Assembly: GCA_020718085.1 (NCBI GenBank)
Contig: DYDB01000001.1
Coordinates: forward strand, 117,902-181,901
Direction: 5' to 3'
DNA from: Micavibrio sp.
GTDB lineage: Bacteria; Patescibacteriota; Minisyncoccia; Moranbacterales; GCA-2747515
Length of the DNA: 64,000 nucleotides
Shown: positions 18,258 to 32,101 of the stretch, one piece after another
Layout: each line of letters opens with the position of its first letter
How positions within the stretch are numbered: the first letter of the stretch is position 1
The notes under the pieces: generated by a model
Databases searched by the model: none
What the model was told of the DNA's origin: nothing
The model's input: only the letters and a program-made list of their open reading frames with translations
Translations under genes and position numbers: made by a program

Positions 18258-18647
18258 TTGAACTTTATGAATAAGCAAAAAATATTCATGATCATAACGA
18301 TCGCTATAGCATTGGTTGGAGTGGGATCATATTTTCTTTTGCCAGATGAATCGGCAAAGAATTCATTGCCGACTGATATTGTTTTCTATTATGGCGATAC
18401 ATGTCCACACTGCAAAAAGGTAGATGAATATGTAGTTCAGAACAATGTACAAGAAAAAATGCCTTTTGTGCAAAAGGAAGTGTATAATGATGAAAAAAAT
18501 TCTGCAGAGCTTGCAAAAATTGCGGAAAAATGCGGCATGGCTGCAGATGAGGTGGGTGTGCCGTTTCTATGGGCTGATCAGCAGTGTTTTGTGGGGGATA
18601 AAGATATCATTGATTATTTTTCACAGAAAATTGAAACACAACAATAA
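18258..18647 (+). CDS. membrane-anchored thioredoxin-fold protein
   Basis: N-terminal TM then YYGDTCPHCKK (CPHC active site). Confidence 0.65.
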   Translation: MNFMNKQKIFMIITIAIALVGVGSYFLLPDESAKNSLPTDIVFYYGDTCPHCKKVDEYVVQNNVQEKMPFVQKEVYNDEKNSAELAKIAEKCGMAADEVGVPFLWADQQCFVGDKDIIDYFSQKIETQQ

Positions 18648-29871: not shown

Positions 29872-30045
29872 CGTTTGGAATAGCTTATATTTGTTACTTG
29901 TTCAAATACAGGGTTCTGTTTGATGAAACTCGACTACGATCTTCTTACAGTTCTGATTTGATTGCATCAAGCATAACAGTAAAATATAATTTTGTCAACC
30001 CTTGTGAATATGATATGATAAATGAGTAAAAAATAAACATAAAAA

Positions 30046-31014
30046 ATGGAAGAAGGCATGGATTTGGACAAGAAAGATGATGAACAAAATCCTCTACCAA
30101 TACCGCCACAAGCACAGAGCAATGATAATGATATGACAGAAGAAAATCGCTCTCCTGAAATGTTGTCAGACATTCCTATGACAGAAAATGCACAAAGTGA
30201 CATGCGATCTTCCGGAAAACTGATTGGCGTAATTGTGGGAATCGTAATATTTTTGATCCTACTCATCATCGTTGGTGTGGTTGGATTTTTCTTTTTTCGT
30301 GGAGGCATCATGGAGCGCTCGGGACAGGTTTTTGGCGATTCTGAGAATGTTGTTGAAAGTGATGTGCGTGCGGATCTGGGTGTGCGATCTGCAGCATGTA
30401 AGGATCTCATATCCAATGGCATTATGGGTGAAGATGTCGTTGAAAGTGAAATAAAAAATTTGCAAGAGGAGATCAATGACGCGTTACAAAATAATGGTGA
30501 TGGTGACATACAATTAACATCGGAGGAAGCATGTTTGGTTAGCATGGTCAGTACCGCTGTTGTTGCCGCTGGTGAACAGGAGAATCTTGAAAATATAGAT
30601 ATTGTAGAAATGAAAGCACTCATAAAATATAATACGCAATATGATGTGACGCAAAAATCGGCTGATCGTATTGCTCTTGCAACAAAGGTAGTCTTACAAA
30701 ATATGGCGGGTGATGCACTAACTGCATCAATTAAATCCATGATTTCCTCAACGGTTCCCGGCATGATCCTTTGTATGGAGGATAACGGATATTTAACAGA
30801 GCCGAAGGAGGGTCAAGAGATGTGCCGTGGAAATAGTGCATATGGTGTGTGGCCTGTGTTGAATGATAAGGGTGCCAAGTGGGGTGGGTGCAAAATGAGC
30901 GTAGAACGCGTGGGTGGTATGATAGAGCATTTTGCATATTGCGCAACAATGGCAGATGGTATGATTGTGATGTGCAGAGAGAGTGGTTGTGACTTTGACG
31001 GTAAAGATAGTTAA
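30046..31014 (+). CDS. membrane protein with disordered acidic N-terminus, one TM and C-terminal pilin-like Cys-containing domain
   Basis: 322 aa; C-terminal about 110 aa homologous to C-terminus of next gene (ASIKSMISSTVP..MILCMEDN..WPVLND..FAYCA..CRESGCDF). Confidence 0.6.
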   Translation: MEEGMDLDKKDDEQNPLPIPPQAQSNDNDMTEENRSPEMLSDIPMTENAQSDMRSSGKLIGVIVGIVIFLILLIIVGVVGFFFFRGGIMERSGQVFGDSENVVESDVRADLGVRSAACKDLISNGIMGEDVVESEIKNLQEEINDALQNNGDGDIQLTSEEACLVSMVSTAVVAAGEQENLENIDIVEMKALIKYNTQYDVTQKSADRIALATKVVLQNMAGDALTASIKSMISSTVPGMILCMEDNGYLTEPKEGQEMCRGNSAYGVWPVLNDKGAKWGGCKMSVERVGGMIEHFAYCATMADGMIVMCRESGCDFDGKDS

Positions 31015-31105
31015 AAAAAGTAATATGGATGACATATAACAGAAAAAGGGAACAATCAAGTAAAATAGCAATTTTAGATCATTTAATTTTTTAATTCTAA
31101 AAGTT

Positions 31106-32101
31106 ATGAATCAACAAATCATAGAATATCTTCAGACAAATAAAACGCAATACACCAAAGAATCGTTGGTTGCACAATTACGTGTTGCAGGGCATGGGGA
31201 AAATGACATTAATGAAGCAGTGAATATGGTCTATGGTGATATGTCTGTGGCACCGGTTAACGAACAACCTGTTAAATATGCAGGATTTTGGATTCGATGG
31301 GTTGCCGCTTTTGTTGATGGGCTCATTGTGGGTATTGCAAGTCTTCCGCTGAGGTTGCTTTTTGGCATTGTTTTGAGTGACATGCCAAGTGCGATCAATA
31401 GTATTTTGCAGAGCGTGATCGGTTTTGGATTACTATGGACATATTATGTTTTTATGACGCATAAGTATCAGGCAACAATAGGTAAGAAATTAGTTGGTAT
31501 TGAAGTGCGTGCAGTTGACGGTGTTGGTAAGGCGGCACTGGGTAACGTTGTGATTCGTGAAACTGTTGGCAAGCTCATTTCTGCAGTCGTTCTATATATT
31601 GGTTACATTATGGCAGGTTTCACATCAAAAAAGCAGGCGTTGCATGACATGATCGGAAGCACTGTTGTGGTGTACAAAGACCCACAGAAAAAAACAAATA
31701 CAGCCGTGATCGCAGTTGTGGTCATTGTTGTTGTTTTTGTGATGATCGCGATCATTGGCATACTTGCATCAATCGTACTTGTGTCACTTAACTCGGCTCG
31801 TGGCAAAGCACAAGATGCGTCTTTCAAAGCCACAGTATCATCAACTGTTCCGATGGCAATGATCTGTATGGATGAAAATCAAAATATTTTACCACCAAGT
31901 GAATATGCAAAAATGTGCAAAATGGGAACTGGTGAGGAATATATATGGCCAATGCTCGATGAAACTGGTGAGTGGGGTACATTGATCGATGGAAATGTGG
32001 CAGATGGCACATTCGCATATACGGCGGAGTTTGCGGAAAGTGGGTTAACGGCCACATGTACACAGCTAGGATGTGAATTTTCTGATGAATCTGTCTACTA
32101 G
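31106..32101 (+). CDS. RDD-family membrane protein fused to a type IV pilin-like C-terminal domain
   Basis: RDD core (WIRWVAAFVDGLIV...KKQALHDMIGSTVVV); then IIGILASIVLVSLNSARGKAQDASFKA (pilin alpha1-helix-like) and C-terminal C..GCEF disulfide-loop-like region. Confidence 0.65.
   Translation: MNQQIIEYLQTNKTQYTKESLVAQLRVAGHGENDINEAVNMVYGDMSVAPVNEQPVKYAGFWIRWVAAFVDGLIVGIASLPLRLLFGIVLSDMPSAINSILQSVIGFGLLWTYYVFMTHKYQATIGKKLVGIEVRAVDGVGKAALGNVVIRETVGKLISAVVLYIGYIMAGFTSKKQALHDMIGSTVVVYKDPQKKTNTAVIAVVVIVVVFVMIAIIGILASIVLVSLNSARGKAQDASFKATVSSTVPMAMICMDENQNILPPSEYAKMCKMGTGEEYIWPMLDETGEWGTLIDGNVADGTFAYTAEFAESGLTATCTQLGCEFSDESVY

Follow-up and report, generated by a model that had tools for sequence, protein, structure and literature searches.

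A Pilin-Derived Module without a Processing Site behind an RDD Membrane Domain in Patescibacteria

Type IV pilins are normally defined by a cleavable class III signal, and pseudopilins are cleaved proteins with a class III signal peptide that polymerise. In bacteria of the candidate phyla radiation (CPR, Patescibacteria) type IV pili are believed to play a central part in the finding and holding of hosts (PMC6744442, PMC11623550), and these bacteria are reported to encode MdbA-like and VKOR disulfide machinery for their pilins (PMC6744442). The sole experimental report on the RDD family of membrane proteins concerns the Halobacillus andaensis RDD protein, described there as a Na+(Li+,K+)/H+ antiporter (PMC5996927). 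Here we describe a locus where features of both systems meet in one protein. It occupies positions 30046–32101 of a 64-kb stretch of contig DYDB01000001.1 (the window in what follows), which belongs to a Patescibacteria genome (Candidatus Moraniibacteriota), and consists of exactly two open reading frames (ORFs) on the + strand. The first, p1 (30046..31014, 322 residues), was read as a bitopic membrane protein with a pilin-type head on a stalk; the second, p2 (31106..32101, 331 residues), was read as an N-terminal three-helix domain, an RDD domain and a pilin predicted to be noncleavable. It is very probable that p2 is a polytopic membrane protein in which the RDD domain continues in frame into a near-whole type IV pilin that starts at about mature residue 7 and includes the C-terminus.

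The pilin module of p2

By direct comparison of the two proteins, residues 215–318 of p1 and 226–326 of p2 (about 105 residues) were found to be 34% identical with 54% positives (BLASTP as a single comparison, E = 8e-15), which agrees with the homology of the C-terminal domains claimed in the initial annotation; the motif string AS-I/F-K..SSTVP..CM-D/E-N..WP..G.WG..FAY.A..C...GC-D/E-F that it gave is visible in the alignment. Its description of the pair as tandem paralogs stands for these domains and not for the whole proteins. Paralogy is restricted to the C-terminal domains, which fall into two distinct head subtypes, and the pair is therefore not a recent tandem duplication.

A free relative located the pilin part of p2 more precisely. 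Residues 207–327 are 52% identical (BLASTP, E = 9e-41) to a 133-residue free prepilin of a related Moraniibacteriota metagenome-assembled genome (MAG), and the alignment runs from the helix through loop and sheet as far as the terminal Cys pair, so that the resemblance is not confined to a transmembrane helix, a result that would have refuted the initial reading. In the register obtained, which is supported both by this alignment and by sequence matches to PDB pilins, residue r of p2 corresponds to residue r-204 of the mature pilin, and G218 stands at the nearly invariant Gly14. A head-only profile of 93 positions, starting after the transmembrane helix, was searched against 1.84 billion representative proteins and, at E<=1e-3, returned 159 of them. 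Of these, 147 were inspected, and at least 77 proved to be canonical prepilins of about 125–140 residues, with N-termini KGFTLIELLVVIAIIGILASIVLVSLNSAR; all the close free relatives carry the Pfam family N_methyl. For the helix, a hidden Markov model (HMM) of alpha1 was built on the first 46 residues of 182 free CPR prepilins. Residues 211–249 of p2 score 57 bits with it (E ~1e-17), while the best of about 70 other ORFs of the window, many of them with transmembrane helices, reaches 4.2 bits; the likeness of the helix to pilin alpha1, already proposed in the initial annotation, is therefore specific and not that of a generic transmembrane helix.

AlphaFold2 models were obtained for full-length p2 and for residues 196–331 alone, with mean predicted local distance difference test (pLDDT) values of 91.4 and 86.9, respectively, and in this region both show a single helix of 58 residues that leads by way of a loop into four antiparallel strands. 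The helix is continuous over residues 199–256 (31700..31873, + strand) and, taking the BLASTP register into account, it unites the last transmembrane segment with pilin alpha1. It is followed in residues 257–331 (31874..32098, + strand) by the alpha-beta loop and a four-stranded antiparallel sheet, with strands at 288–295, 304–309, 314–319, and 322–327. When the full-length model was compared with the PDB by Foldseek, nothing significant was obtained (a Geobacter pilus chain at E = 7 only). That search was uninformative because a multidomain query swamps the small head, and residues 196–331 had been re-modelled separately for this reason. With the truncated model the top match was the full-length PAK pilin 1oqw_A (probability 0.91, TM-scores 0.55/0.52, 135 columns, 20% identity), at E = 0.2, which is not significant on its own; helix and four-stranded sheet are nonetheless those of the pilin-like fold that the initial annotation had expected. 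A sequence search of the PDB with a helix-plus-head profile gave 8 weak matches, the top 7 being type IV pilins or GspG in the same register. Four Cys are invariant in 12 heads, namely C254 at the end of alpha1, C271, C318, and C323 in p2. They would pair as a CxxxxC bridge at the beta3-beta4 turn and a helix-loop bridge.

Thus p2 has an alpha1 helix of about 50 residues with a hydrophobic first half and Gly14, a globular head in which an alpha-beta loop and a four-stranded sheet stand on alpha1-C, and a head sequence homologous to bona fide pilins. By descent and fold, its C-terminal module is a type IV pilin.

Whether free pilins with the same head exist elsewhere in the genome was a question raised in the initial annotation. 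Such pilins were found in related Moraniibacteriota genomes, and none was found in the window, where the prepilin motif is absent from all six frames, pilC was not detected by tblastn and no type IV pilus gene is present anywhere. Neither was a free pilin seen on the 388,850-bp contig that carries p1, among the best 120 matches to a related pilin. In five related genomes (L003, L005, L006, L007, and L009) the gene immediately 3′ of that for a 402-residue PilC encodes a prepilin of about 130 residues bearing this head, and the complete genome CP175956 has PilO, PilB, response regulator, PilT, PilC, and pilin in this order, all confirmed by Pfam. The free pilin of L003 and the RDD-pilin fusion P0006 of L008, a locus syntenic with the window, belong to a single MAG, so that both forms can coexist in one genome. 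In that MAG the segment ASIVLVSLNSAR is identical as protein in the two forms. Recent gene conversion between free pilin and fusion was considered as the cause and rejected, because the third codon positions of the segment agree only in about 40%; the shared alpha1 is kept by purifying selection.

The missing processing signal, the RDD domain and its family

The class III signal, that is, leader, Gly-1, residue 1 and Glu5 (PF07963), is found neither in p2 nor in p1. A motif of the G/F-T-L-I-E type is absent from p2 and from all 120 homologs listed, PF07963 N_methyl gives no match to p2 even at E<=1, and the positions of Gly-1, Phe1, and Glu5 are taken by V204, V205, and V209, so that the lack of a prepilin-peptidase site reported at first was borne out. 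In addition, the hydrophobic helix is extended by about 7 residues towards the N-terminus, at the place of the polar leader. The match to the alpha1 HMM begins in p2 at HMM position 8. The same HMM matches 116 of 122 RDD-family sequences (median 39.9 bits), with starts mostly at positions 7–13 and never before position 4, so that the processing motif is systematically absent from the family. Considering that leader, Gly-1, Phe1, and Glu5 are replaced by hydrophobic residues, p2 should be neither cleaved nor methylated by prepilin peptidase and should not be extractable into a filament. By this defining feature the module is not a member of the pilin family, and it is best described as a pilin-derived, noncleavable paralog.

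The RDD membrane domain of p2 covers residues 58–184 (31277..31657, + strand). PF06271 matches it with E = 4.1e-22 and 79.4 bits against a cut-off of 24.1, over profile positions 1–136 of 137, and the domain upstream of the helix is complete, as had been stated. An alignment of 61 family members shows no variation at the signature residues R64, D71, and D181, and p2 is a bona fide member of the RDD family. It was also possible to see, in the RDD part of the full-length model, a weak likeness to the transmembrane domains of Pex2/Pex10/Pex12 in the retro-translocon 7t92, which was not significant (Foldseek E 0.3–0.5, probability up to 0.85) and is the sole structural lead for the RDD fold.

The loops 122–144 and 172–198 of p2 are both rich in K/R, and the Lys-rich segment YKDPQKKTNT directly precedes the pilin helix. 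These loops and this segment, and the relationship of the head to Cys-bonded pilin heads that are exported, suggest a topology with the N-terminus inside, two RDD transmembrane helices, a re-entrant segment at 145–171, the pilin helix running from inside to outside and the head outside. The first 42 residues (31106..31231, + strand) form a small three-helix domain, presumed to be cytoplasmic, with AlphaFold2 helices at 3–12, 18–27, and 32–42. It has no Pfam match and is UBA-like in appearance, as far as its pattern goes. This N-terminal module is interchangeable: p2 and its close relatives have the three-helix domain there, other members a zinc ribbon (PF13240 or PF13248 in P0058, P0068, and P0084; P0075 and P0113 are also among the members in which the module varies).

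Searches with p2 gave 335 homologs, named as Moranbacteria, Parcubacteria, Yonathbacteria, Taylorbacteria, or "Patescibacteria group". In nearly all the members the RDD domain is followed by the motif IIGILASIVLVSLNSARxKAxDA, and what comes after the motif varies among a head of the p2 type, other Cys-containing heads resembling those of other CPR pilins and long extensions; in P0066, P0072, and P0076 there is no head and only a tail of about 19 residues remains. Identity of the RDD domain and identity of the head are decoupled. Heads of the p2 type are present on proteins that include the lowest RDD identity, 39% (P0011, P0012, P0014, and P0016), and members with 55–57% RDD identity carry unrelated heads; on account of this decoupling, the heads must have been exchanged or acquired repeatedly. 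Versions without RDD exist as well, in which the N-terminal three-helix domain is joined to the transmembrane helix and head (P0125, and P0126 in L004). In L004 (5684–6270) the three-helix domain and the helix plus head are in two overlapping frames, which suggests an apparent frameshift or a sequencing error; P0125, from another assembly, is an in-frame form of 194 residues.

An add-on of about 95 residues with two Cys (TYAD..LT.D.M.GVVAK..LGC...TETRG.GTVWTIE/K) was observed after the head in P0124 (L002, 213–1436), P0004 (L011, 6001–7314), P0146, and L004 (5180–5584). As it occurs in the p1 homolog of one genome and in the p2 homolog of another, it would be a mobile module moving between the paralog lines. 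Among the matches of the head profile, the 2757-residue P0128 was set aside, since its score probably adds up weak resemblances of a small beta domain with Cys bridges and is unlikely to be meaningful. P0128 looks like a giant secreted or surface protein, with 11 tandem repeats of about 95 residues (ICAGSNFSQTNP...WQLETG...YADNGKKVRFTATNGCG) and is not CPR-looking.

The junction VVVYKDPxKK lies within the same continuous ORF in more than 100 independent assemblies (NCBI, JGI, ENA, and Logan). Automatic annotation at JGI labels some homologs "RDD family membrane protein YckC / pseudopilin PulG". No publication combining "RDD domain" and "pilin" was found in the searchable literature, in accordance with the remark of the initial annotation that no described family fitted, and a survey of CPR protein families that highlights pilins makes no mention of RDD. 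The RDD-pilin architecture is therefore visible in the databases, where some homologs bear both COG names, and undescribed in the searchable literature.

The stalked protein p1 and the genomic setting

The N-terminal 57 residues of p1 (30046..30216, + strand) make up an acidic, Pro-rich tail (15 D/E against 4 K/R, and 6 P), presumed to be cytoplasmic, which ends in the juxtamembrane motif DMRSS, kept in P0122–P0124 and P0127. A hydropathy scan placed the single transmembrane helix, KLIGVIVGIVIFLILLIIVGVVGFFFF, at residues 58–84 (30217..30297, + strand). Acidic N-terminus and single helix had both been recognised in the initial annotation, which omitted the stalk of about 130 residues between helix and head. 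By sequence comparison this stalk comprises residues 85–214 (30298..30687, + strand); it is acidic, presumably extracellular, and contains C118 and C163, both kept in P0127. Residues 215–322 (30688..31011, + strand) were assigned by homology to the p2 head as a soluble alpha1-C remnant and a six-cysteine pilin head (WGGC...YCAT), with Cys at 243, 260, 282, 299, 310, and 315. Only the amphipathic second half of alpha1 is left in p1, alpha1-N having been replaced by soluble sequence, and the fold of the head is expected, from its homology to p2, to be pilin-like. No Pfam family matches p1 above cut-off, there is no RDD match, and PF07963 N_methyl does not match even at E<=1.

A word-based search gave four close homologs of p1. 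The relative P0127 is 44% identical over 304 residues, stalk included, and the head profile widened the p1-like family to P0127, P0133, P0137, P0139, and P0140. The layout of the family is a tail, one transmembrane helix, an acidic stalk with two Cys, the alpha1-C remnant and the six-cysteine head; P0143 has two heads and P0135 an additional Cys-rich domain. For these stalked pilin-head proteins neither a publication nor a family name was found in the searchable literature. None of the 77 free prepilins has the six-cysteine subtype (W-G-G-C ... Y-C-A), which was seen in 34 anchored proteins and one or two RDD fusions, and given this absence from free prepilins against its frequency in anchored proteins it can be regarded as an established nonfilament lineage of the pilin head. 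The motif SLNSAR.KA is retained in stalked proteins far from the membrane (P0133, P0139, and L010), for which reason the region is probably needed for the folding of the head and not for contact with the machinery.

The genes p1 and p2 are separated by 92 nucleotides. A promoter-like site, TTGTCA and TG-TATGAT with a spacer of 16 nucleotides (29992..30019, + strand), lies 27 nucleotides 5′ of the p1 start codon; it was assigned by match to consensus (10 of 12 positions, plus the extended -10 TG). No terminator-like site was found between p1 and p2. Taking into account this absence, the short gap and the promoter-like site 5′ of p1, co-transcription in one transcript is likely. An identical copy of the region is present on an independent groundwater-metagenome contig (ENA ERZ909603, L001). 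Around the pair the gene order is rpsL, rpsG, DUF1189, fusA (EF-G), csp on the minus strand, p1, p2, and a DivIC-like gene, followed by a PpiC/SurA-like foldase, HtrA, ClpB, DUF5656, a second HtrA-like gene and rplU. Elsewhere in the window (18258–18647), a 129-residue protein with an N-terminal transmembrane helix and a CPHC motif was observed, with a match to Pfam Glutaredoxin that is below cut-off (E = 0.0016). It is a candidate membrane-anchored thiol-disulfide oxidoreductase, which could oxidise the exported, Cys-rich heads of p1 and p2.

The p1-p2 tandem is kept in L002 and in L015, where the p1 homolog is 44% and the p2 homolog 61% identical, and a degenerate version is present in L004. 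In L008 the place of p1 is taken by P0040 (4600–5193, 197 residues), an RDD-only paralog directly upstream of the RDD-pilin fusion that ends exactly at the point where the pilin helix would start. The slot between csp and the RDD-pilin gene is thus variable and holds different membrane proteins across Moraniibacteriota. Eight loci with the head domain were located in GTDB species genomes, all of Candidatus Moraniibacteriota except one MAG labelled "uncultured Micavibrio sp.". In none of six contexts (the window, L008, and L011–L014) was the RDD-pilin gene linked to type IV pilus genes. In the Patescibacteria contig L014 (6001–9098) it is situated inside the cluster of ribosomal protein genes, where it stands between rplB and rpsH in the company of genes for a PsbP_2-domain protein and a Fic protein; about ten ribosomal protein genes are usual at this position.

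Possible function and comparison with known systems

It is very probable that the pilin part of p2 belongs to the same family as the pilin of the pilB-pilT-pilC operon of the lineage, and that its hydrophobic alpha1-N has become the last transmembrane segment of the protein. In the explanation that we propose, the segment YKDPQKKTNT would mimic the positive leader of a pilin, so that the helix should insert N-in/C-out, and as a consequence of this orientation the head, with its predicted disulfides, would lie on the outer face of the membrane. The single-pass protein p1 very probably holds a diverged six-cysteine head atop its acidic stalk. Both proteins would stay in the membrane with their heads outside and never enter a filament, and the cell body would display membrane-proximal (p2) and stalk-raised (p1) copies of a pilus surface domain. 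The pilin head might then be a static cell-surface module for contact or adhesion and not a filament subunit, used for example to hold whatever the pilus head binds after retraction pulls it in, and the RDD domain would provide a membrane anchor or a coupled membrane function.

Architecture and display function taken as a whole, we prefer this explanation and consider it nearly an even call; the static surface role by itself is put forward as possible rather than probable. It is favoured because the head is found on many unrelated anchors, in multi-head proteins, with distal add-ons, freely swapped and without linkage to pilus genes, and also because the six-cysteine subtype is never seen in free pilins and the p1-p2 pair is kept in L002 and L015. 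The idea of the initial annotation that a pilin head was repurposed as a permanently membrane-tethered surface module is in this way supported, as a well-founded reading of the sequence.

A different role would be that of a pilin mimic working with the type IV pilus machine. The alpha1 of p2 would dock in the membrane, its partner being the pool of pilins, the PilC platform or the fibre base, and the protein would act as terminal anchor, primer, brake, or pilin-level sensor, the head only matching the resident pilin; the PilA-PilS transmembrane interaction of Pseudomonas offers an analogy. Throughout the RDD family, and independently of the head, positions 10–34 of alpha1 follow the consensus of free pilins, their transmembrane part is under purifying selection and not the product of recent gene conversion, headless RDD-plus-alpha1 members exist, and p2 shares its type of head with the pilin encoded in the operon of the lineage. 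On the other hand, p2 is missing Glu5 and a free N-terminus, which are important for the docking of pilin subunits; none of the six neighbourhoods is linked to pilus genes; SLNSAR.KA is also kept in stalked proteins, away from the membrane; and the conservation of the transmembrane part could merely reflect packing against the RDD helices. We consider such a mimic rather doubtful. The broader form of the idea, in which RDD plus a nonextractable alpha1 would be a Patescibacteria-wide pilus component whose head was repeatedly exchanged to match the resident pilin, seems unlikely to us.

A further view would make the RDD domain, perhaps as an ion antiporter, the working core of p2, with the pilin fold as its extracellular sensor or regulatory lid and p1 as an unrelated neighbour that has the same fold. 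The invariance of the signature residues, the antiporter activity reported from the only experiment on the family (PMC5996927), the RDD-only paralog adjoining the fusion gene in L008, and the housekeeping character of the gene contexts are consistent with a core of this kind, by analogy with the studied protein. Nevertheless, heads are freely swapped or lost on similar RDD backbones, which is unexpected for a tuned regulatory domain, versions without RDD exist (P0125 and P0126), and the pairing of p1 with p2 is kept at 44% and 61% identity, so this reading is quite improbable. That p2 is a cryptic prepilin, from which a protease cutting near the RDD-helix junction would free a filament pilin, agrees with the near-full length of the pilin part and its identity to a real pilin; it is highly improbable in view of the lack of any equivalent of Gly-1, Phe1, or Glu5 in p2 or the 120 homologs listed, the absence of an N_methyl match and the hydrophobic extension where the polar leader would stand. 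Finally, an artefact, that is, separate RDD and pilin genes run together through faulty assembly or a frameshift error, or a transmembrane resemblance due to chance, is hardly credible despite the apparent frameshift inside the gene in L004, as misassembly is excluded by the same junction in more than 100 independent assemblies and the identical ENA contig, and chance by the head homology to the free prepilin.

The architecture would surprise a specialist of pili, its function being what we infer. A whole pilin, helix included, would have left the filament pathway and become anchored in the membrane in two different ways, as in p1 and p2, and the RDD-fused form is a large conserved family widespread in Patescibacteria. 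Pilin heads could be general surface modules in minimal CPR cells, and annotation should be made with care, for not all "pilin-like" proteins of CPR are filament subunits. The RDD-pilin proteins also give a testable handle on the nearly uncharacterised RDD family. If the pilus-component reading were true, they would provide the first mechanistic role for that family in these organisms and a new part of the pilus machine in episymbiotic ultrasmall bacteria.

By comparison with described systems, the nearest to p2 is the operon prepilin of Candidatus Moraniibacteriota (L003, 5893–6294; L007, 5893–6285; PF07963), which it resembles from alpha1 (residues 7–53) through the alpha-beta loop and the sheet as far as the C-terminal Cys pair, and with which it shares the motifs IAIIGILASIVLVSLNSAR, SSTVP, CMD, WP, and GC.F. 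The prepilin has the leader MKKG followed by FTLIE, the N_methyl motif and a place after pilC in the pilO-pilB-response regulator-pilT-pilC operon, all of them absent in p2, whose pilin part is instead preceded by about 200 residues of RDD protein. The PAK pilin 1OQW, the type IVa major pilin of Pseudomonas aeruginosa, has the same topology as the helix plus head of p2; unlike p2, it has Phe1 and Glu5 and is processed to become a subunit of a filament, and its disulfide pattern differs from the one predicted here. The pseudopilin GspG/PulG (TIGR01710; PDB 5wda) matches alpha1 weakly (E = 0.026 for residues 208–246 of p2 and E = 1.3 for the profile), and it is cleaved and polymerises; the head of p2 is of the CPR pilin type and not of the GspG type. 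With the RDD family (PF06271; Bacillus YckC and the Halobacillus andaensis RDD protein), residues 58–184 of p2 share the full profile and the R, D, D signature, whereas the described RDD proteins have neither the pilin-derived helix nor the head; the Halobacillus andaensis protein, the only member assayed, is reported as a cation/proton antiporter (PMC5996927). As for p1, it belongs with the stalked bitopic pilin-head proteins of Patescibacteria (P0127, P0133, P0137, P0139, P0140, and P0143), some of which have two heads or extra Cys-rich domains.

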